Assembly: GCA_030603745.1 (NCBI GenBank)
Contig: JAUVXE010000008.1
Coordinates: forward strand, 5,675-69,674
DNA length: 64,000 nt
From: Coriobacteriia bacterium
GTDB lineage: Bacteria > Actinomycetota > Coriobacteriia > Anaerosomatales > SLCP01
Direction: 5' to 3'
A program made the translations under genes and the position numbers. The notes under the pieces were generated by a model. That model searched no databases, was not told the origin of the DNA, and saw only the letters and a program-made list of their open reading frames with translations. This document shows, in pieces, positions 80 to 15,090 of the stretch (within the stretch, counting starts at the first letter, position 1; every line of letters begins with the position of its first letter).

Positions 80-2665
80 ATGAGACGCGACATCTTCGGC
101 AGGCACCTCTACAACCAGATCGTCGCCCCGCTCGTGGTCGCCGCGCTCGCGGTCGGGGTGATCGCGACCGTCGTGGCGGTCTACTTCCTTTCCGACCTCA
201 CCGAGAGCTGGGTCGACGAGGTGGCGCAGGGGGCGAGCGCCAACCTGCTCCACCGAATCGACACCCGCTCGAACGCCATGCAGAGCGTCGCCAAGCTCGC
301 CGCTGAGGACCGTCGCCTGCGAGACGCGCTCCAGGCCGAGGAGTTCACGACGGTCCGCGGCATCCTCACGCAGAGCAACGTCGCGCTCGGGTTCGACAAC
401 CTGATGCTCCTTGACTCGGCCGGCACCGTGGTCGCGACCACGGGGCTTGCGGGCATCGCCCCTGGGGACGTGATCCTCGCGCAGGCCGACCGCACGTGGG
501 CCGACCTCGCGATGCCGCACCCCGCGTTCCTCGAGATCGGCGGCACGCTCACCCTGACCGCGATGCAGCCCGTCCTCGGCAGGGGGGAGAGCGTCTACAC
601 GCTCTGCCTCTCCGAGGCGATCGACGAGCGCTTCCTGCTCGACTTGGCGACCGGCGCCGGGGACGCGTTCTGCTTTTACGACGAGGACCTCACCCCGATC
701 GCGTACACCGTGCCGCGTGGCGGCGGCGAGGGCGAGCGGACCGGCTCCGACCCCGAGCCCCTCCTCGCCGCGGTCTCGAGTCCCGCCGAGGAGATCCAGC
801 GCGCGCTCGAGCAGGCGGTCGAGACCGGCGAGGGGAGTTCCGTCGTCGCCGTGGCGGGCACGCAGTACCGGGCCACCGCGCGCCGCATCGACCTGCCAAA
901 CGACCCGGAGGACGACACGCGGGCCTACCTGGTCTCCCTCATCAGTCAACAGGTGAGTGACGACGCCCGCATCACCACGACCAACCTCATCACCATGTGG
1001 TCGATCGTCGCGGTCGTCGCGCTGATCGGGCTGGGCGGCTGGGTGGCCCGCCGGGTCTCCGAGCCGCTCGTGGCCTTGACCGAGGGCGCCCAGCGCATCG
1101 CCGACGGCGACTTCTCGACGAAGATCCCGCTGCACGGCAAGAACGAGATCGCGGAGCTCGCCGAGAGCTTCAACCAGATGACCGACTCGCTCAAGGACCG
1201 CAGCGAGAACCTGACCAAGAAGGTCCTCGAGCTGGCCACCCTCTACGAGATGAGCCGTGCCCTCGGCGGGACCCTCGACCTCGGCGAGCTGCTCCAGTCG
1301 GTCCTCGACTCGGCGCTGCGGATCTTCGGCGCCGACCTCGGCTACGTCACGATGCGCGACCACGACGCCGGGACGCTCGAGATCCGGGCGCGGAGTGGGG
1401 GCGTGCCGGCGCGCGTCGACGACCAGGCGCTCCGCAACTCCATGTCGGAGTGGGTGATCCGCGAGGCGCGCCCGCTCATCTTCAACCCCTCGGCGGACCG
1501 CTCGACCGGCCAGGTCGAGGTGGTGACCGGCGCGATGGCGGCACTGTGCGTCCCGCTCATCTCCGCCGAGGGGACCATCGGCGCGATCACCGTGGGCAGT
1601 CAGGACCCGGAGTTCCGGTTCACGAGCGACGACGTGCGGCTGCTGTCGACCATCGCCAACCACGTCACGATCGCGATCGGCAACATCGACCTGTTCTCAA
1701 GCCTCCAGGAGGCCTACCTCGCGACCGTTCGCTCGCTCGCCGCCGCGGTCGACGCGAAGGACCCGTACACGCGCGGCCACTCGGAGGGCGTCGCGGTCTA
1801 CGCGACCATGATCGCCGAGCGCATGGGCCTCTCGCACGACCAGCGCATAGCGCTCGAGATGGCGGCGTACCTGCACGACATCGGCAAGATCGGCATCAAG
1901 GAGTCCATCCTGCTCAAGCCGGGGCAGCTCACCGACGACGAGATGTCGCAGATGCGGCACCACCCCCTGATCGGGGCGAACATCCTCAAGCCGGTCGGGT
2001 TCCCGTGGCCGATCACGCCGGTCGTCAGGCACCACCACGAGCGCTGGGACGGCGAGGGCTACCCCGCCGGCCTCAAGGGGGAGGAGATCCCGCTCCTGGC
2101 CCGTATCCTCACGGTCGCCGACGCGTACGAGGCGATGATCGCGGACCGGCCGTACCGCAAGGGCCGCACGATGGAGGAGGGCGCGGCCGAGCTCAGGCGC
2201 TGCGCGGGCACGCAGTTCGATGCCGCCGTCGTGGACGCGTTCGTCGAGGCCCTCGAGGAGCAGCGGGAGGCGGGCCAGCAGGGTGTGACCGGGCACGAGG
2301 AGGAGGTCGGGGCCGACGAGGCCCGGGCGATCTTCGTCGCGCTCACCGAGGGGATGCTGGTGAGCTTCCGCCGGCTCGGCGGACCGCGGCTGGCGGCCAA
2401 CGCCGAGAGCGCGCTCAACGGGGAGTTCTCCCGGGCGGGACTGCCGCTCACCGTCTCGGCCGGGCGGGTGGCGCTCGCGGCCCACGGCCCCGAGCATGAC
2501 GGGGCGGACCTCGAGCAGATGCGCCGTGCCCTGCGGCTCCTCGACGAGACCCTCGGCAGCCTCTCCGGCCACTCGTTGGTCGACCACTTCTACGCCGATG
2601 CGATGGAGTCGCTCTCCGAACGCATGCGCCGGCTCACGGTGCATCTGGAGTTCTACCCTGGCTGA
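80..2665 (+). CDS. Membrane sensor HAMP-GAF-HD-GYP cyclic-dinucleotide phosphodiesterase
   Basis: Two TM helices flank an extracytoplasmic domain; HAMP (EIAELAESFNQM), GAF, DAKDPYTRGHS, LHDIGK, HHERWDGEGYP. Confidence 0.9.
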   Translation: MRRDIFGRHLYNQIVAPLVVAALAVGVIATVVAVYFLSDLTESWVDEVAQGASANLLHRIDTRSNAMQSVAKLAAEDRRLRDALQAEEFTTVRGILTQSNVALGFDNLMLLDSAGTVVATTGLAGIAPGDVILAQADRTWADLAMPHPAFLEIGGTLTLTAMQPVLGRGESVYTLCLSEAIDERFLLDLATGAGDAFCFYDEDLTPIAYTVPRGGGEGERTGSDPEPLLAAVSSPAEEIQRALEQAVETGEGSSVVAVAGTQYRATARRIDLPNDPEDDTRAYLVSLISQQVSDDARITTTNLITMWSIVAVVALIGLGGWVARRVSEPLVALTEGAQRIADGDFSTKIPLHGKNEIAELAESFNQMTDSLKDRSENLTKKVLELATLYEMSRALGGTLDLGELLQSVLDSALRIFGADLGYVTMRDHDAGTLEIRARSGGVPARVDDQALRNSMSEWVIREARPLIFNPSADRSTGQVEVVTGAMAALCVPLISAEGTIGAITVGSQDPEFRFTSDDVRLLSTIANHVTIAIGNIDLFSSLQEAYLATVRSLAAAVDAKDPYTRGHSEGVAVYATMIAERMGLSHDQRIALEMAAYLHDIGKIGIKESILLKPGQLTDDEMSQMRHHPLIGANILKPVGFPWPITPVVRHHHERWDGEGYPAGLKGEEIPLLARILTVADAYEAMIADRPYRKGRTMEEGAAELRRCAGTQFDAAVVDAFVEALEEQREAGQQGVTGHEEEVGADEARAIFVALTEGMLVSFRRLGGPRLAANAESALNGEFSRAGLPLTVSAGRVALAAHGPEHDGADLEQMRRALRLLDETLGSLSGHSLVDHFYADAMESLSERMRRLTVHLEFYPG

Positions 2666-7339: not shown

Positions 7340-9487
7340 ATGACGGACCGTCCAGACGACGCGCTGCTCCACGCCGTGTTCTCCGGCAAGGAGTGGCGTG
7401 AGGCAGCCGATGCCATGTTCGAGGTCGCCGGTGCGGCGATCGTCGTCAGCCTACCCTCCGACGGCAGCGCGCTCTATGCTTCGCCGAGGTGCGCGTACTG
7501 CGCGCTGATCCATCCCGCCGAGGGGGTGGGGATGACGGGCGGCTGGGGGTGCCTCGGCAGGACCGGCGAGGTCGGGACGGGTGCGACCACATGCTTCTCC
7601 GGCCTGCCCTGTCAGGTCGCTGCCGTGAGCTACACCGGTGTCCAGCTGGCGCACCTGACCGTGGGAGGGTTCGTCTCGACCACGCGCGAGCGCAAGCGGA
7701 TGTTCGAACGCCTGCTCTCCCTCGGCGTCGCCGAGGCCGATGCGTGCCACGCGGTGCGCGACATCCCGGTCGTCCCGCGCAGGAAGGCCGAATCGCTCGT
7801 GACCGCCCTGCGCGTCCACGCCGAGAGTCTCATCGCGCGGGCGTACGAGTCCCGGGGGTCGGCCGACCGGATGCGGGAGCTCGAGGTCTTCCTCGACGCT
7901 GGCCGCGAGTTCCTCGAGCTCGGGCACGGTGAGGACGAGCTCGAGCACCGCATCCTCGCGCGGGCGCTCCTCGTCGTGGGAGCCGAGCGGGGGCGGCTCG
8001 TCCTCCGGCGTCCGGGCACGGACCTGGCCGACGTGGTCGCGGTCGCCGGCGAGAGCGACGGTCTCGTGGAGGGCGACGTGCTCAGGCTCGGGGAGGTCGT
8101 CGAGGGTCGCGTGCTCGCGAGCGGCAACAGCGTCATCGTCACCGGCCGCGAGGGGACGGAGGCCGGGCGAGCCGGCCGCGGCGAGACCGCGACGGTGTCG
8201 ATCGGCCTGCGGCGGCCCGAGGGCTGTCTCGGCGCCTTCACGATCCACGGCGTCGTCACGCACGGGCCTGCGACGCGCGAGGCGATGCGGCTCCTCGAGC
8301 GGTTCGCGACCGTCGCGGCGACGGTGCTCGAGAACACGCGGAGCGACCGCGAGGCCCGTCGCTCGCTGCGCGAGATGGTGCACCTCGACGCCTTCGCCCG
8401 CACGCTCGCGGCGTGCTCCACGTGCGACGAGGTCGCCGAGGTCGCCATACCGGTGCTGCACCACATCCTCGACGCGGGCGTGTGCGGTATCGCGCTCACC
8501 GCGTGGCGCCTGGACAAGGTGCACGTCAGTGTCTATACCACCGTCACGCGCGAGGTCCTCTCGGCGGTGATCGGCGAAGCCACCGGCCGGGACGTCGCCG
8601 CCGAGCCGTTCGCGGCCGTGCGCGCCACGACGGTCGGCGGGGAGATCCTCGACGCCGCGGACGGTGACCACGCGACCGCCGGCGACGCGGACGGCCCCGT
8701 GCTCTCGGTGCCGCTCTCGGTCCGCGGGACCGTGGTCGGCTACGCCTTCGCCGCACTTCCCTCGGCGGGCAGGTTCGTCGCCGCCGACCAGCGCGGCGTG
8801 GAGTCGGCGACGGCACACATCGCGTGCGCCCTCGACCGCGCGGCCGAGTGGGAGCTGCTGCGGGCCGACCACGCCAAGACGATCGCGGCGCTCGCGGCGG
8901 CCCTCGACTCCGCCGAGCGGGTGGACCGTGGCCACACCGACCGCATCGCCGAGTACGCGATCGCCCTCGGCCGCGAGCTCGGCCTGCCCTCAGACGAGCT
9001 CCGCTCGCTGCACTTCGCCGCGGTCGTGCACGATATCGGGACGGTCGGGGTGGACGCCCGCCTGCTCGACAAGGCCGGCCCGCTGACCGCCGAGGAGCGC
9101 GCGGAGGTCCAGCGGCACGTGCACGTGGGGGCGGACATCATCGGCCAGTTGCAGTTCCTCGAGGACGTCACGCCGGTCGTCCGCCACCATCACGAGCGCT
9201 GGGACGGGTCCGGCTACCCCGCGGGGCTTGATGGCGAGCGCATCCCGATGCTGGCGCGGCTGCTGGCGGTCGTCGACGCGTTCGACGCGATGACGTCGCC
9301 GAGGCCCTACCGGCCGCAGTTGACCCTGGCCGAGGCACGCGCGGAGCTCGCGCGCGGCGCGGGAACGCAGTTCGACCCGGGCGCGGTCCAGGCGTTCGTG
9401 GCGGTGCTGGACCGGCAGGCGCTCGCGGGGATGACCGGACTGCTCGCGACCCGGCACGCCGGTGACGGGCGACACCTGCCCGCCTGA
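7340..9487 (+). CDS. PocR-like/GAF/HD-GYP domain protein
   Basis: Cys-rich N-terminus (CAYC...C...CFSGL), GAF-like middle, HDIG and HHERWDGSGYP; no TM. Confidence 0.85.
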   Translation: MTDRPDDALLHAVFSGKEWREAADAMFEVAGAAIVVSLPSDGSALYASPRCAYCALIHPAEGVGMTGGWGCLGRTGEVGTGATTCFSGLPCQVAAVSYTGVQLAHLTVGGFVSTTRERKRMFERLLSLGVAEADACHAVRDIPVVPRRKAESLVTALRVHAESLIARAYESRGSADRMRELEVFLDAGREFLELGHGEDELEHRILARALLVVGAERGRLVLRRPGTDLADVVAVAGESDGLVEGDVLRLGEVVEGRVLASGNSVIVTGREGTEAGRAGRGETATVSIGLRRPEGCLGAFTIHGVVTHGPATREAMRLLERFATVAATVLENTRSDREARRSLREMVHLDAFARTLAACSTCDEVAEVAIPVLHHILDAGVCGIALTAWRLDKVHVSVYTTVTREVLSAVIGEATGRDVAAEPFAAVRATTVGGEILDAADGDHATAGDADGPVLSVPLSVRGTVVGYAFAALPSAGRFVAADQRGVESATAHIACALDRAAEWELLRADHAKTIAALAAALDSAERVDRGHTDRIAEYAIALGRELGLPSDELRSLHFAAVVHDIGTVGVDARLLDKAGPLTAEERAEVQRHVHVGADIIGQLQFLEDVTPVVRHHHERWDGSGYPAGLDGERIPMLARLLAVVDAFDAMTSPRPYRPQLTLAEARAELARGAGTQFDPGAVQAFVAVLDRQALAGMTGLLATRHAGDGRHLPA

Positions 9488-9542
9488 CCGGCCCGAGGGG
9501 CGTGTGGTAGAATCCGCGCACTTCGACTCGGGGGAGCCACCG

Positions 9543-10148
9543 TTGAACAGGACTCGCTACATCGCCCAGGCGGGAGTCATCGCCGCGGTGCACGCCGCCG
9601 CCACCATCGCCGTGCTGCAGATGCCCGCGCAGCTCGGGTGGGGGCCGATCCAGCTGCGCGTGAGCGAGGCGCTCACCGTGGTCGCGCTCTTCACCCCGGC
9701 CGCGGTCCCCGGACTCACTCTCGGGACGGCGGCGGCGAACGCCGTGCTGGTCGCGCAGGTGGGCCCGGTGGGCCTGCTCGACGTGCTCTTCGGCTCGCTG
9801 GCGACGCTGCTGGGGGCCGTGTGGACGTGGCGGTTCCGTCGTCGCCGGATGCTCGCGCTCGCGGGCCCGGTCATCGCCAACGCGCTCATCGTCCCGGCCT
9901 ACCTTCCGTTCGTCCTCGCGGCGCTCGGCTTCGCCCAGGAGCCGTTCTTGGGAATAGATGTGAGCAGTGGCTGGTTCGCGGCGTACGCGGTCGGGGTCGT
10001 CACCGTGGGCCTCGGCCAGGCGGTCGTCCTCTACGGTCTTGGACTGCCGCTTGCGACGATGCTCGGCCGCATCGACCTCGCCGGCCTTGCCGGCGGCACC
10101 GGGGACGGGCGGAAGGGCGGAGAGGTCCGCTGGCGATGGAAGCGCTGA
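9543..10148 (+). CDS. queT: QueT-family (queuosine precursor) transporter
   Basis: IAQAGVIAA...GPIQLRVSEALTV...PAAVPGLTLG signature; TTG start after GGGGAG. Confidence 0.8.
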   Translation: MNRTRYIAQAGVIAAVHAAATIAVLQMPAQLGWGPIQLRVSEALTVVALFTPAAVPGLTLGTAAANAVLVAQVGPVGLLDVLFGSLATLLGAVWTWRFRRRRMLALAGPVIANALIVPAYLPFVLAALGFAQEPFLGIDVSSGWFAAYAVGVVTVGLGQAVVLYGLGLPLATMLGRIDLAGLAGGTGDGRKGGEVRWRWKR

Positions 10149-11971
10149 ACAGGGACGGGAACGGACGCGAGGTGACCTCCCCGGCTGGGGACCCCGCGAC
10201 CCGGGGGTTTCTCATCGAGAGCTCCCCGGGGCGCTGCCTCGCGTGCTGGGCGTGCGTCCGCGCGTGCCCGGCACGCGCGATCCGGGTCGTCGACCACCGC
10301 GCGGAGATCGTCGAGGACCGCTGCATCGAGTGCGGCGCGTGTGTCGGCGTGTGCGGGAGGGACGGCCACGTCGTGCGGGACGACCTTCCGCACGTGCGCG
10401 ACCTCCTGGCGAGCGGCCGGCCGGTGGTGGCGCTGCTCGCGACCGAGTTCGTGGCGGCGATGCACCCGGCCACGCCCGCCGAGGTCGAGCGCGCGCTCGA
10501 GCGAGCGGGCTTCTACGCGGTCGAGACCACCCTCCTCGGCGAGGAGCTCGTCGCGCTCTCCTACGAGCACGCGCACGCGCGCGCCACGGCGCCGGTGGTG
10601 TTGCGCTCGACCTGTCCGGTCGCCGTGTCGTGGGTGCGGCGGTTCCGGCCGTCGCTGGTTGGCGCGCTCGCGCCCATCATCCCGCCCTACATCGCTCAGG
10701 CGCGGCTCGTGCGGGCCCTCTATCCCGCGGACGTCGCCATCGTCTACGTCTCGCCGTGCTACGCGCGCAAGGACGAGATCGCCGATCCGCAACTCGCGGG
10801 GGCCGTCGACGTCGCGATCGACTTCGAGGAGCTCAAAGCACTCATCGGCTCGGCCGCCACGCCGATGGCGGCCGTCCCGCCGCCGTGCTCTGGGTCGCGA
10901 CGCCCGGCGCCCGTGAAGGAGCTCTCGCTCACCGACGGCTACCCGCGCCGCACCCTTGTCGAACACGACATGACCTCGCAAGACGTCGTGGCGGTCCGCG
11001 GCGTCAAGGCCATCGACGACCTGCTCGGCGCGGTCGAGCGGGGGGAGGTCGGCCCACTCGTGGTCGATATGCTCTACTGCGACGGGTGTGTCGACGGTCC
11101 CGCGACCGGCTCGGAGCTGTCGGTCTTCGCGAAACGGACGGTGCTCGCCAACGCCGGCCGCGCCACGCCCCGGACCACGGTGGACACGCGCAAGCTGCTC
11201 GCGCATCTCCCGGCGGTGGAGACCGTCCGCTCGTTCACGGCGTCCCCCGCACTCATGCGGGTGTTCGACGACGCCCAGATCGATGCGTGCCTCGCCGAGG
11301 GGGAGTTCGAGAGCCGCGACGTGCTGCTCGACTGCGGGGCATGCGGCTACGAGACGTGCGTCGAGCACGCGGTCGCGGTCCTCGACCACGATTCGACGTG
11401 GGACATGTGCTTCCCGCTCCAGCGCAAGCGTCTCGAGCGGACGAACGAGGCCCTCGAGCGCTCGGCCACGCTCGACTCGCTCACGGGCCTGTGGAACCGG
11501 CGCGTGTTCTCGGAACGGCTCGAGGCCGAGGTGGCGCGAAACGCCCGCTACGGCACGGACGTCACGCTGCTCATGATCGACCTCGATGCGTTCAAGGAGG
11601 TCAACGACGGCTACGGGCACACCGTCGGGGACGCGGTCCTCGGCGAGGTCGCCCGCATCATGCGCGACACGGTCCGCGAGACCGACGTACCGGCGCGCTA
11701 CGGCGGCGACGAGTTCGCACTCATCCTGCCCGGTATCGGCAAGACCGCCGGCTACGCGGTCGCCGAGAAGCTGCGCGCCCTCATCGCCGCCGCGGCGGTG
11801 CCCACGGACGGCGCGCGTGGCGGTGACACGGTCTCGACGACCGTCTCGGTCGGGCTCGCCTCGGCGGGGGGGAGCACGACCAGCGCCTCGTCACTGGTCG
11901 AGGCGGCCGACCGGGCCCTCTACCGGGCCAAGGCGCACGGGCGTGACCAGGTCAGGATCGCACCGGACTGA
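10136..11971 (+). CDS. Sensory [FeFe]-hydrogenase-like (group C-like) Fe-S protein fused to GGDEF diguanylate cyclase
   Basis: 2x[4Fe-4S] ferredoxin motifs, H-cluster-like motifs STCP / SPCYARKDE / DMLYCDGCVDGP, FeS domain DCGACGYETC...C, DSLTGLWNRR, FKEVNDGYGH, RYGGDEF. Confidence 0.88.
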   Translation: MEALNRDGNGREVTSPAGDPATRGFLIESSPGRCLACWACVRACPARAIRVVDHRAEIVEDRCIECGACVGVCGRDGHVVRDDLPHVRDLLASGRPVVALLATEFVAAMHPATPAEVERALERAGFYAVETTLLGEELVALSYEHAHARATAPVVLRSTCPVAVSWVRRFRPSLVGALAPIIPPYIAQARLVRALYPADVAIVYVSPCYARKDEIADPQLAGAVDVAIDFEELKALIGSAATPMAAVPPPCSGSRRPAPVKELSLTDGYPRRTLVEHDMTSQDVVAVRGVKAIDDLLGAVERGEVGPLVVDMLYCDGCVDGPATGSELSVFAKRTVLANAGRATPRTTVDTRKLLAHLPAVETVRSFTASPALMRVFDDAQIDACLAEGEFESRDVLLDCGACGYETCVEHAVAVLDHDSTWDMCFPLQRKRLERTNEALERSATLDSLTGLWNRRVFSERLEAEVARNARYGTDVTLLMIDLDAFKEVNDGYGHTVGDAVLGEVARIMRDTVRETDVPARYGGDEFALILPGIGKTAGYAVAEKLRALIAAAAVPTDGARGGDTVSTTVSVGLASAGGSTTSASSLVEAADRALYRAKAHGRDQVRIAPD

Positions 11972-11983
11972 TCGGAGGCGACG

Positions 11984-13006
11984 ATGCGCACCGCAGCGCT
12001 CTGGCAGGCCGAGGAGGGCCGCGTCCGGTGCGCGCTCTGCCCGTGGCGCTGCCTCATCGCCGAGGGACACGCAGGGGTCTGCGGCGTGCGGGTCAACGTC
12101 TCCGGCCGGCTCGTCGCCACCACGTACGGCACGGTCTCCTCGGTCGCGGTGGACCCGATCGAGAAGAAGCCCGTCTTCCACTACCGTCCCGGCTCGGCGG
12201 TGCTCTCGCTCGGGAGCGTCGGGTGCACGATGCGCTGCGGCCACTGCCAGAACTGGCGGATCAGCCGCGCGCGGCCGGACGACGGGTCGGTCCCTTCGCG
12301 GCAGCTCGAACCCTCCGACGTCGTCGCCCTCGCCCGCGAGCACGGGTGCCCGGGGGTGGCCTTCACCTACAACGAGCCGGTCATCTGGGCCGAGTTCGTG
12401 CGCGACGTCTCCGAGCTCTGCCGCGCCGAGGGGCTCTTCACCGTGATGGTCACGAACGGCTACATCACGCCCGAGGGACTGGACTTCCTCGGCGAGTGGA
12501 TCGACGTCTGGCGCGTCGATGTCAAAGGGGCGACCGACGAGGTCTACCGGGAGCTCTGCCACGTGCCCTCGCCCGGGCCCGTGTTCGCCGCAGCGGAGCG
12601 CGCGAAGGAGCGGTGGGGGATGCACGTCGAGGTCGTGACCAACGTGGTGCCCACGGTCAACGACGACCCGGACCAGATCCGCGCGATCGCGCGCTGGATC
12701 GTCGGCGTCCTCGGGCCGGACACGCCGTGGCATCTTACCCGCTTCATCCCCTACCTCGACTTCTCGCACCTCGAGCCCACGCCGGTCGAGACGCTGCGCG
12801 AGGCCGCCGGCATCGGGCGGGAGGAGGGGGTGCGCTTCGTCTACCTCGGCAACGTCTCGGAACCGGGCGCCGAGGACACCGTCTGCCCCCGCTGCGGGGC
12901 GACGGCGATCGCGCGGAAGGGGTACACCATAGTGAAGCACACGACGCGCGACGGAGCGTGCGCGCGGTGCGGGACGGGGCTCGGGATCGTCGGAGAGGGG
13001 GCGTGA
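11984..13006 (+). CDS. amrS: AmmeMemoRadiSam system radical SAM enzyme
   Basis: CALCPWRC...GVCGVR, DPIEKKPVFHYRPG, CTMRCGHCQNW, FTYNEP. Confidence 0.92.
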   Translation: MRTAALWQAEEGRVRCALCPWRCLIAEGHAGVCGVRVNVSGRLVATTYGTVSSVAVDPIEKKPVFHYRPGSAVLSLGSVGCTMRCGHCQNWRISRARPDDGSVPSRQLEPSDVVALAREHGCPGVAFTYNEPVIWAEFVRDVSELCRAEGLFTVMVTNGYITPEGLDFLGEWIDVWRVDVKGATDEVYRELCHVPSPGPVFAAAERAKERWGMHVEVVTNVVPTVNDDPDQIRAIARWIVGVLGPDTPWHLTRFIPYLDFSHLEPTPVETLREAAGIGREEGVRFVYLGNVSEPGAEDTVCPRCGATAIARKGYTIVKHTTRDGACARCGTGLGIVGEGA

Positions 13007-13839: not shown

Positions 13840-15090
13840 GTGACACCCTGCGTGATCATCCCCACGTTCTGGACGCGTCGTCGCGGACGCGTGCCCGATA
13901 ACCTGCTCGCGGTCTACGATCACCCCACCCCGATCGACTCAGACGGCACGCTCCCGGCCTGCCTGAGGTCGCTCGAGGAGGTCGAGGGCCTTGGCCGCGT
14001 GATCGTCACGGTCGCGACGACCGATCCGGCGATCGAGCACGCCGCCGAGGACCGGGTCCGGCAGATCCTCGCCGACTTCCCCGGTGTCGACGCGCTCGTC
14101 TTCGGGCCCGCCGAGCTCGGCTCGCTCCACCGCCGCCTCGAGCAGATCGAGTTCGCCGACATGATCCCCGGCGTGAGCCTCGTGGGATACGGCGCCGCCC
14201 GCAACGTCGGCCTGATCGCCGCGGCCATCCTCGGCTGCGACACGGTGCTCTTCATCGACGACGACCAGATCATCGACGACCCCGGTTTCATCAGAAAGGC
14301 GATGGAGGGCATCGGCGAGCCGTACAAGGGCGGCAACCGGCGCATCCTCGCCAAGACCGGCTACTACACCGACGAGGCCGGCAACTACCAGCGCCACGAG
14401 GAGCCCCACTTCGCCGACATGTTCTGGCGCCGGGACGACGCGTTCAACGAGGCGCTCTCCATGGTGGACCGCCCGCCGAGGATCACGCCCTCCTCGATCG
14501 CGTTCGGCGGATGCCTCGCGCTGCACCGCGACATGTTCTGCAACGTCTCGTTCGACCCGTGGGTCGTGCGCGGCGAGGACGTCGACTACGTCATCAACGC
14601 GCGCATGCACGGCGGTGACGTCTTCCTCGACGGCGAGTGGTCGCTCATCCACAAGCCGCCGAGGCTCTCCAGCGAGGCGCTGCAGTTCCGGCAGGACGTC
14701 TACCGCTTCATCTACGAGCATCGCAAGCTCGAGTTCGCGAAGTCGCAGGTCGACCTGCGCCAGGTGACGCCTGAGTCGATGGCGCCCTATCCGGGCCCGT
14801 TCATCTCCTCGAGCGTGACGTGGCGGGCGGTCCTCACCGCGCTGCTGCGCGGCGTCTCGCGCAAGGAGGGCGGCCGCTACTTGCGTGTCGCGCGGGTCGC
14901 CCTCAAGGACGCCTCGGACTACGCCCGTGAGAACTGCCAGGGATACTTCGACTTCCAGCGCCGCTGGCCGCTGCTGATGGACCGCATCTGGAACGATGTC
15001 GCGCTCAAGTCCCTCTTCACGGGCGAGCGCCGCATGGACCGGAGCGCCATCACGGGCCGCTTCCCGATGGTCCGCGGCGAAGACCGGTGA
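13840..15090 (+). CDS. GT-A (family 2-like) glycosyltransferase
   Basis: VIIPT, YGAARNVGL, LFIDDD (DxD), RGEDVDY. Confidence 0.7.
   Translation: MTPCVIIPTFWTRRRGRVPDNLLAVYDHPTPIDSDGTLPACLRSLEEVEGLGRVIVTVATTDPAIEHAAEDRVRQILADFPGVDALVFGPAELGSLHRRLEQIEFADMIPGVSLVGYGAARNVGLIAAAILGCDTVLFIDDDQIIDDPGFIRKAMEGIGEPYKGGNRRILAKTGYYTDEAGNYQRHEEPHFADMFWRRDDAFNEALSMVDRPPRITPSSIAFGGCLALHRDMFCNVSFDPWVVRGEDVDYVINARMHGGDVFLDGEWSLIHKPPRLSSEALQFRQDVYRFIYEHRKLEFAKSQVDLRQVTPESMAPYPGPFISSSVTWRAVLTALLRGVSRKEGGRYLRVARVALKDASDYARENCQGYFDFQRRWPLLMDRIWNDVALKSLFTGERRMDRSAITGRFPMVRGEDR

Follow-up and report, generated by a model that had tools for sequence, protein, structure and literature searches.

The window analysed here, a stretch of 64,000 nucleotides from a Coriobacteriia bacterium of the order Anaerosomatales (assembly GCA_030603745.1, contig JAUVXE010000008.1, positions 5,675 to 69,674 of the forward strand), carries a gene which joins a [FeFe]-hydrogenase-like sensor module to a diguanylate cyclase domain. 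The gene is flanked by a QueT-family transporter gene and by a gene for a radical S-adenosylmethionine (SAM) enzyme. Its product, in the following called the window protein, has two ferredoxin-type motifs, a hydrogenase domain (H-domain), an additional iron-sulfur (FeS) domain, a helix and a GGDEF domain. The coordinates of the gene, its domains and motifs and its two neighbours are given in Table 1. The source genome comprises 2.14 Mb in 28 contigs and is 98.5% complete.

Table 1. Features of the sensor gene and its immediate neighbours, numbered by position in the window.
Feature	Position	Strand	Basis
Sensor gene, 611 residues: Fer4 x2, H-domain, FeS domain, helix, GGDEF	10136..11971	+	Open reading frame, Pfam, NCBIfam, AlphaFold2 model
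Shine-Dalgarno-like GGAGAGG, 10 nucleotides ahead of ATG	10119..10125	+	Sequence
N-terminal ferredoxin-like domain, residues 30-75	10223..10360	+	Pfam 4Fe-4S dicluster / Fer4 models
[FeFe]-hydrogenase H-domain (PF02906), residues 97-322	10424..11101	+	Pfam, Foldseek, profile
A102-T103-E104, opposite CpI A230-P231-S232	10439..10447	+	CpI profile alignment
L1 motif RSTCP, residues 157-161: Arg157 (CpI T297), Thr159 (proton-transfer C299), Cys160 (cluster ligand C300)	10604..10618	+	Alignments
L2 motif SPCYARKDE, residues 206-214: Ser206 (CpI M353), Cys208 (C355), Arg211 (K358)	10751..10777	+	Alignments
L3 motif DMLYCDGCVDGP: Leu313 (CpI M497), Cys315 and Cys318 (C499, C503), C-x2-C spacing	11066..11101	+	Alignments
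C-terminal FeS domain (PF04060), C400-x2-C403-x4-C408-x16-C425 (Cx2Cx4Cx16C)	11327..11416	+	Pfam
Linker helix 426-445, 20 residues, from the last FeS cysteine directly into the GGDEF domain	11411..11470	+	DSSP of full-length model
GGDEF diguanylate cyclase domain, residues 444-605	11465..11950	+	Pfam, NCBIfam, structures
I-site RETD (RxxD), residues 514-517, five residues ahead of GGDEF	11675..11686	+	Sequence
A-site GGDEF, residues 523-527	11702..11716	+	Sequence
Upstream neighbour, QueT-family transporter	9462..10148	+	PF06177, 108.2 bits
Downstream neighbour, AmmeMemoRadiSam-type radical SAM enzyme	11984..13006	+	TIGR04337, 308.9 bits, cut-off 220

Domain architecture and fold

The N-terminal ferredoxin-like domain has two CxxCxxCxxxC motifs, at residues 34-44 (C34/37/40/44) and 63-73 (C63/66/69/73), and is predicted to hold two [4Fe-4S] clusters. 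It is followed by the H-domain (Fe_hyd_lg_C, residues 97-322; E 3.1e-27, 96.2 bits against a Pfam cut-off of 22.1), by the C-terminal FeS domain (match at 398-427; 25.5 bits, cut-off 23) and by the GGDEF domain, which scores 154.3 bits with PF00990 at 444-605 (cut-off 23.8) and 172.2 bits with TIGR00254 of NCBIfam (cut-off 37.4). A profile comparison of the H-domain with hydrogenases of the PDB gave E 1.5e-51, and the NCBIfam models of the catalytic groups scored far under their cut-offs (TIGR02512, group A, 47.6 against 405.95 bits; TIGR04105, group B1, 117.2 against 450 bits). All 16 cluster cysteines are present. Among the 120 closest cluster representatives, which are 56-71% identical to the window protein and are here called family representatives, C44, C63, C66, C69 and C73 of the ferredoxin domain are kept in 120/120, as is each of C400, C403, C408 and C425. 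C34, C37 and C40 are kept in 116-117 of the 120, and the remaining representatives have a gap or a shortened N-terminus there.

For residues 1-440, an AlphaFold2 model computed from 106 aligned sequences reached a predicted local distance difference test score (pLDDT) of 91.9 and a predicted template modelling score (pTM) of 0.90; the corresponding values for the full-length model were 90.3 and 0.79. In a Foldseek search the 1-440 model had 74 matches in the PDB at E <= 0.001 and only [FeFe] hydrogenases at the top, among them the enzyme of D. desulfuricans (E 8.8e-18, TMq 0.63, probability 1.00), CbA5H, the alpha subunits of T. maritima and T. kivui HydABC, and CpI, all with probability 1.00. 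A preliminary description of this gene, made from the sequence and its open reading frames, had named the lack of a structural match to the [FeFe]-hydrogenase large subunit as refuting its proposal; with these enzymes at the head of the Foldseek results, such a match does exist. The Pfam results also bear out the architecture it had proposed, that is two ferredoxin-type motifs, an H-domain with four cluster cysteines, an extra FeS domain and a GGDEF domain, and the motifs it had quoted lie at residues 157-161 (RSTCP), 206-214 (SPCYARKDE), 315-318 (CDGC), 514-517 (RETD) and 523-527 (GGDEF). What it had called a coiled coil is indeed helical, but is predicted in the model as one single helix, spanning residues 426-445.

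Relationship to sensory hydrogenases

The architecture is common to all of the best 120 of 575 database matches, and the matches go under the plain database name 'diguanylate cyclase'. A search with residues 80-440 against 1.84 billion cluster representatives returned 1,647 proteins with E <= 0.001, of which 135 had E <= 1e-30, and 70 of the best 150 relatives were scanned against Pfam. The six closest of the 70, GGDEF-linked and 49-55% identical, belong to the window protein's own family. The other 64, at 25-39% identity, show the same order of ferredoxin, H-domain and PF04060, placed ahead of GGDEF, GGDEF with HD-GYP, MCPsignal, PAS, HisKA-HATPase or sigma-54 activator (Sigma54_activat) domains. 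As one and the same module precedes such varied outputs, it is to be regarded as the input part of sensory, HydS-type hydrogenases.

Phylogenetic analysis of the sensor module (129 rows, IQ-TREE quick search, LG+G4) yielded an unrooted tree, in which 'clade' denotes one side of a branch. A branch with a Shimodaira-Hasegawa-like approximate likelihood ratio test (SH-aLRT) support of 100 splits 23 rows, here termed the Arg-Ser-Thr type, from 106 canonical rows. Twenty of the 23 carry GGDEF and three are fragment-like; among the canonical rows GGDEF is found in 4/106. A subset tree of 64 rows (LG+C20, quick search), with the fragment-like P0134, P0137 and P0231 left out, recovered the same split (20 versus 44) as well as the window family (8 rows), with a support of 100 each; the support values of the trees are SH-aLRT from quick searches. 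In both trees the window protein falls outside the canonical sensor clade. Judged by these relationships, it is a member of the sensory (group C/D-like) hydrogenase superfamily and, within it, of a separate clade that is almost wholly GGDEF-linked. The preliminary description had held that group C enzymes usually have PAS, kinase, methyl-accepting chemotaxis protein (MCP) or phosphatase partners. Such relatives do carry PAS, HisKA/HATPase and MCPsignal domains, but a GGDEF fusion is not rare in the databases, given the best 120 of the 575 matches and the wider GGDEF-linked clade. The domain behind the FeS domain is GGDEF in the window protein and PAS in the definition of group C given in the available text of the TamHydS study (PMC13104023).

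A remodelled pocket at the former H-cluster

Pairwise and profile alignments set the three loops of the H-domain opposite TSCCP, MPCxxKKxE and the CxxxC loop of T. maritima HydA and CpI. C160, C208, C315 and C318 correspond to the residues that ligate the [4Fe-4S]H subcluster in CpI, the last two lying in the CDGC of L3 (residues 315-318), and Glu104 stands where CpI has Ser232, a residue lining its diiron site. The catalytic signatures, namely TSCCP with its proton-transfer cysteine, MPCxxKxxE with Lys358, and C-x3-C in L3, are not found in the window protein. Each of E104, R157, S158, T159, C160, C208, R211, C315 and C318 occurs in 120/120 family representatives, the L3 Cys-Cys spacing is 4 in all 120, and lysine at K358 is found in none of them. 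A decaying, pseudogene-like domain was considered as well and ruled out, the sensor residues being invariant throughout the 120 representatives.

In order to separate what is peculiar to this clade from what is usual in sensors, the 129 sensor-module representatives were aligned and their sites numbered by CpI through the profile alignment. Among the canonical sensors the proton-transfer cysteine (C299) is kept in just 7/106, M353 is replaced by glycine in 100/106, and the C-x2-C loop is present in 59/106 (a count of tree labels). Both the Cys to Thr exchange and the short L3 are thus normal for sensors, with which the motif changes published for TmHydS agree, as far as the available text gives them (PMC10055695). 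The picture is different at three other sites. At CpI S232, serine is found in 91/106 canonical sensors and glutamate in none, and glutamate occupies the site in 8/11 window-family rows and 11/12 other rows of the clade. Arginine at T297 is found in 0/106 canonical sensors, in 10/11 window-family rows and in 12/12 of the other clade rows. Lys358 is kept in 94/106 canonical sensors, in 0/11 window-family rows and in 2/12 of the others. The window-family rows that depart at these sites are mostly the three fragment-like sequences. By the aligned residues, therefore, the marks of the clade are glutamate at CpI-S232, arginine at T297 and the loss of Lys358. Glu104, Arg157 and Arg211 of the window protein putatively line the former diiron pocket. 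In CpI, Ser232 and Lys358 are residues which hydrogen-bond the [2Fe] cofactor. Residues with this function are conserved in sensory hydrogenases according to the accessible part of the TmHydS work (PMC10055695), and a clade that does not conserve them thus breaks a rule which the true sensors keep.

Three deviations from the catalytic motifs had been singled out in the preliminary description. The loss of the L1 cysteine and the shortening of L3 by one residue are real, but as deviations they lose their force, being common among sensors; the exchange of lysine for arginine is a true departure. The two further changes that mark the clade, S232 to Glu and T297 to Arg, go beyond what had been noted before.

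Distribution and lack of detected maturases

The N-terminal 440 residues were compared with a sample of 150 genomes of the class. At E <= 1e-20 a match is present in 64 of the 67 that belong to the same order and in 0/83 of other orders; it is single-copy except for three cases, in which it is split into pieces or lies in pieces at contig ends. Within a phylum sample of 400 genomes, relatives at 30-41% identity occur in 29 genomes of other classes, representing 11 families. From 28 of these genomes 29 loci were fetched, 27 of which encode proteins of the Arg-Ser-Thr type. Glutamate at S232, arginine at T297 and the four H-site cysteines are found in 27/27, and Lys358 in 3/27, the residue at this site being A in 14, Q in 7, K in 3, and V, W and H in one each. 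The GGDEF domain is encoded at 26 of the 27 loci, and the remaining one is cut by a contig end. Members of the Arg-Ser-Thr clade are present in Anaerosomatales-like Coriobacteriia and in at least 11 other actinobacterial families, and Gemmatimonadales have a further decayed form. A search for relatives with the GGDEF-linked alignment, in a single scan of genome contigs, keyed on GGDEF patterns, and 79/80 loci were plain cyclases; its sole full-length relative (L078:478-2253, + strand), from a Gemmatimonadales metagenome-assembled genome, no longer has the cluster cysteines of L1 and L3 (RSTDP; no CxxC) and retains the C-terminal FeS domain and the GGDEF domain.

The maturases HydE, HydF and HydG were searched for in the same lineages; among the controls of this search only T. 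maritima and B. thetaiotaomicron came out over cut-off. None of the three was over cut-off in the source genome. HydG was found in 0/68 genomes of the order, the source genome included, within a class sample of 151 genomes, of which seven, all belonging to other orders, have HydG over cut-off. HydF and HydE were each over cut-off in none of the 101 genomes of the order searched, 73 of which are at least 90% complete. HydG was over cut-off in 0/29 and HydF in 0/29 of the other-class genomes with a match to the sensor module (a relative of the clade came from 27 of them), and HydG was not found in the Gemmatimonadales genome carrying L078. The preliminary description had argued from the absence of hydEFG in the window. 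One window says little, but the genome- and order-wide counts give that argument its substance.

The fusion is the sole PF02906 gene in the source genome, and likewise in 63/64 of the positive genomes of the order. In the one same-order genome that differs, a second PF02906 match of catalytic type (290 bits; G101:C104:117-971) is situated on a short contig, at its edge, and possibly represents contamination. Outside the window, the source genome contains a match to a [NiFe]-type hydrogenase large subunit (541.7 bits; G000:C14:64716-66188, - strand) with one in-frame TGA, which may be a selenocysteine-containing [NiFeSe] enzyme.

The cyclase output and the c-di-GMP network

The GGDEF domain aligns over its full length to WspR, PleD and DosC, with E 4.7e-36 to 3.8e-31 for the WspR and PleD structures and E 8.1e-27 for the GGDEF structure of DosC. 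Together with its A-site and I-site motifs, this bears out the earlier claim of an intact diguanylate cyclase with an I-site. RETD stands five residues ahead of GGDEF, the position it has in cyclases regulated through their I-site. R514 and D517 are each kept in 119/120 family representatives. The A-site is an intact GGDEF in 93/120 and a GGDEY in a further 3, and it is degenerate in 24 of the 120 (P0001-P0120), all of which keep the sensor residues. With pocket and ligand residues invariant in 120/120 and the A-site intact in 93/120, the sensor is under tighter constraint than the catalytic motif, and the proteins of some lineages may, judging from these motifs, act as receptors or binders of cyclic dimeric GMP (c-di-GMP) and not as cyclases. 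The c-di-GMP network of the source genome is dense, comprising 14 GGDEF matches (the window protein included), 4 EAL matches and 12 matches to HD_5 (HD-GYP-type).

Gene neighbourhood

Gene order was compared in 16 of the 64 positive genomes, selected so as to have long contigs and to represent different families. In 16/16, the genes for QueT, the sensor, the radical SAM enzyme and a 416-residue protein follow one another in this order, with the QueT-family gene directly upstream and the radical SAM gene directly downstream of the sensor in each; in the window the 3' end of the queT-like gene overlaps the sensor start by 13 nucleotides. An OmpR-type regulator and a histidine kinase are encoded upstream of the sensor in 16/16, and in 7/16, as in the window, a PocR-GAF-HD-GYP gene is placed between the kinase and queT. 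As about 17 kb are syntenic as a whole in the order, adjacency alone does not prove that the genes work together. The source genome yielded no match to Memo and has AMMECR1 on another contig (C2), and the radical SAM gene is thereby detached from its usual partners, which we treat as a lead only. An Rfam scan of positions 9200-12200 gave no riboswitch match ahead of queT or the sensor.

Two phosphodiesterase-type proteins are encoded less than 10 kb upstream of the cyclase, a HAMP-GAF-HD-GYP protein (window 80-2665, +) and a PocR-GAF-GAF-HD-GYP protein (7340-9487, +). The 416-residue protein (13840-15090, +), whose gene follows that of the sensor at a distance of two to three genes in 16/16, has no Pfam or NCBIfam match. 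It is 64-85% identical across the 16 genomes, which exceeds the conservation of the sensor, and its language-model features suggest a likeness to GT2-like glycosyltransferases (score 0.99). Possibly it is a polysaccharide enzyme under the control of c-di-GMP.

Proposed function and alternatives

We consider it fairly probable that the window protein is an FeS-only redox or oxidant sensor that drives c-di-GMP synthesis. It would be a soluble and probably dimeric diguanylate cyclase, with an input module descended from sensory (HydS-type) [FeFe] hydrogenases that has lost the diiron [2Fe]H subcluster. Four [4Fe-4S] clusters would remain: the ferredoxin domain would hold two, C160, C208, C315 and C318 would bind a third where the H-cluster used to be, and the Cx2Cx4Cx16C domain would carry the fourth. 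Their oxidation state or integrity would be set by a low-potential electron pool or by oxidants (O2, NO, peroxide) and relayed through helix 426-445 to the GGDEF domains, raising or lowering c-di-GMP synthesis, and the RxxD I-site may add product feedback. The changes in the pocket and the missing maturases speak against a direct activation of H2 by the protein. As maturase absence is an imperfect proxy, the case for the loss of the diiron site rests on these two results together and on neither alone. The preliminary description had guessed at a protein holding [4Fe-4S] clusters only and sensing redox or O2 and not H2; the pocket and the order-wide absence of maturases fit this guess, and the signal may be redox, an oxidant or something else.

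Several observations weigh against this interpretation. The cluster content is predicted from the cysteines alone, and all four ligands of [4Fe-4S]H are retained, including the cysteine that bridges to [2Fe]H; arginine could in principle replace lysine as the partner of a cyanide ligand. The genome G230, which is 100% complete, has five PF02906 matches, two of which are of catalytic type (326 and 285 bits; G230:C19:32622-38712) and stand beside canonical sensors, and no HydG, HydF or HydE over cut-off. The catalytic-type hydrogenases of this genome, without detectable maturases, make the absence of maturases not decisive when taken by itself. In the other orders of the class, PF02906 matches occur in 49/83 genomes and HydG in 7 only. 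Either many actinobacterial hydrogenase homologues have no H-cluster, or maturation escapes these models. Cultured members of the order oxidise H2, and its isolates grow on H2 with [NiFe] hydrogenases, as the accessible text on them states (PMC9686372). With this and the [NiFe]-type genes in the source genome, an H2 signal would make physiological sense. Finally, the C-terminal cluster of TamHydS gave no response to H2 in the results available from that study (PMC13104023).

Among the alternatives, one is that the Glu104/Arg157/Arg211 pocket beside an accessible [4Fe-4S] iron binds some other small ligand or cofactor, which constitutes the signal; a gas or an anionic metabolite would be candidates, as would a group that the adjacent radical SAM enzyme installs. 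We regard this as unlikely. The three pocket residues are invariant in 120/120, tighter than the cyclase active site at 93/120, and the radical SAM gene is found directly downstream in 16/16, with Memo not found in the genome and AMMECR1 on another contig. Against it, the adjacency is possibly mere inheritance within the ~17 kb that are kept as a whole in the order, and the variation of the residue at K358 among the 27 proteins of the wider clade, as given above, is contrary to one common binding site. The bolder form of this idea, in which the whole Arg-Ser-Thr clade would be a new sensor class, whose emptied pocket binds a new ligand or cofactor, perhaps installed by the radical SAM enzyme, through the invariant Glu/Arg/Arg on an exposed [4Fe-4S] iron, the input being neither H2 nor bulk redox, appears to us similarly doubtful.

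A genuine H2 sensor, in which the diiron subcluster is still acquired by an unrecognised route or with divergent maturases, and in which the oxidation of H2 reduces the cluster chain and switches the cyclase, is very unlikely in our judgement. It would be in keeping with the nearest relatives, which are putative H2 sensors, with the four H-cluster cysteines, all of them kept, with H2 as a substrate in the order (PMC9686372, in its accessible part) alongside [NiFe]-type hydrogenase genes in the source genome, and with G230 as an instance of how the maturase test can fail. Yet Lys358 and Ser232 are replaced and T297 is an arginine throughout the family, at sites where the canonical sensors keep their residues (PMC10055695, available text); HydE, HydF and HydG were not found in the 68-101 genomes of the order that were searched; and no catalytic [FeFe] hydrogenase which such a sensor could regulate was found in the source genome.

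We give equally little credence to a third possibility, that the hydrogenase-like module is a purely structural or dimerising scaffold with stable clusters, attached to a constitutive cyclase limited by its I-site or, in some lineages, to a c-di-GMP receptor. Such a role could account for the degenerate GGDEF in 24/120 next to an RxxD kept in 119/120, for the Gemmatimonadales relative without the L1 and L3 H-site cysteines, and for the C-terminal cluster of TamHydS that is reported as unresponsive to H2 in the available text (PMC13104023). Against it, the three pocket residues and all but three of the 16 cluster cysteines are invariant in 120/120 at 56-71% identity, with these three cysteines at 116-117, the gene is kept single-copy across an order, and elsewhere this module is coupled to kinase, MCP, sigma-54 and PAS outputs, which is what one expects of an input module.

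Comparison with known systems and implications

Among the closest known systems is TmHydS of Thermotoga maritima, a putative sensory hydrogenase of group C (M2f). According to the available descriptions (PMC10055695, PMC13104023), it shares with the window protein the two N-terminal [4Fe-4S] motifs, the H-domain with four cluster cysteines, the loss of the proton-transfer cysteine, a small residue at M353, and a C-terminal four-cysteine FeS domain followed by a signalling domain. The output is PAS in TmHydS and GGDEF in the window protein, which differs further by S232 to E, K358 to R and T297 to R, at sites that include the [2Fe] contacts conserved in sensors, and by C-x2-C in L3, a loop that is C-x3-C in each of the 43 rows of the branch to which the PAS-only relatives belong. 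It also lies across the branch of SH-aLRT 100, in a genome without detected maturases or catalytic hydrogenase. TamHydS of Thermoanaerobacter mathranii, putatively sensory and of group D (M2e), is alike in its N-terminal clusters, H-domain and atypical C-terminal [4Fe-4S] cluster; unlike the window protein with its cyclase and remodelled pocket, it lacks an output domain and, once artificially matured, binds a functional H-cluster, as stated in the accessible text (PMC13104023). The idea of a hydrogenase-type sensor coupled to c-di-GMP synthesis is shared by the [NiFe] group 2c of HydDB, 'diguanylate cyclase-linked (putative)', although this is an unrelated metalloprotein family and the cyclase is there the product of a linked gene, not a fusion to an [FeFe] H-domain. 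In the part of the HydDB paper available, a diguanylate-cyclase-linked group is given for [NiFe] enzymes only, and [FeFe] group C has three subtypes (PMC5037454). The globin-coupled DosC has the same succession of a cofactor-bearing sensor domain, a helix and a GGDEF domain, but its sensor is a haem globin and not an FeS hydrogenase-like module. A possible parallel outside the bacteria is eukaryotic Nar1 / NARFL (IOP1), in which the H-domain keeps the [4Fe-4S] ligands without a diiron subcluster, in organisms without HydEFG; these proteins take part in the assembly of cytosolic FeS proteins and lack a signalling output.

No description of an [FeFe]-hydrogenase-like domain fused to GGDEF was found in the searchable literature covered, and the available text of the paper on isolates of the order contains 0 occurrences of diguanylate cyclase or c-di-GMP (PMC9686372). 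The present analysis contributes the residues that define the clade, its tree, and counts of maturases across the order and the phylum. As to how HydS-type proteins transfer a signal from cluster to output, the work on TamHydS argues, in its accessible part, against the simplest model (PMC13104023). A sensor contained in one protein, with an output as easily assayed as the conversion of GTP to c-di-GMP, would render this question testable in vitro. If the diiron site is indeed gone, bacteria would have in this clade a counterpart to the hydrogenase-like proteins of eukaryotes, and an FeS-based input domain would join the list of those known for c-di-GMP signalling. For the order itself, a group of subsurface anaerobes, a near-universal single-copy gene combined with a dense c-di-GMP network suggests that the protein probably acts as a central switch of lifestyle.

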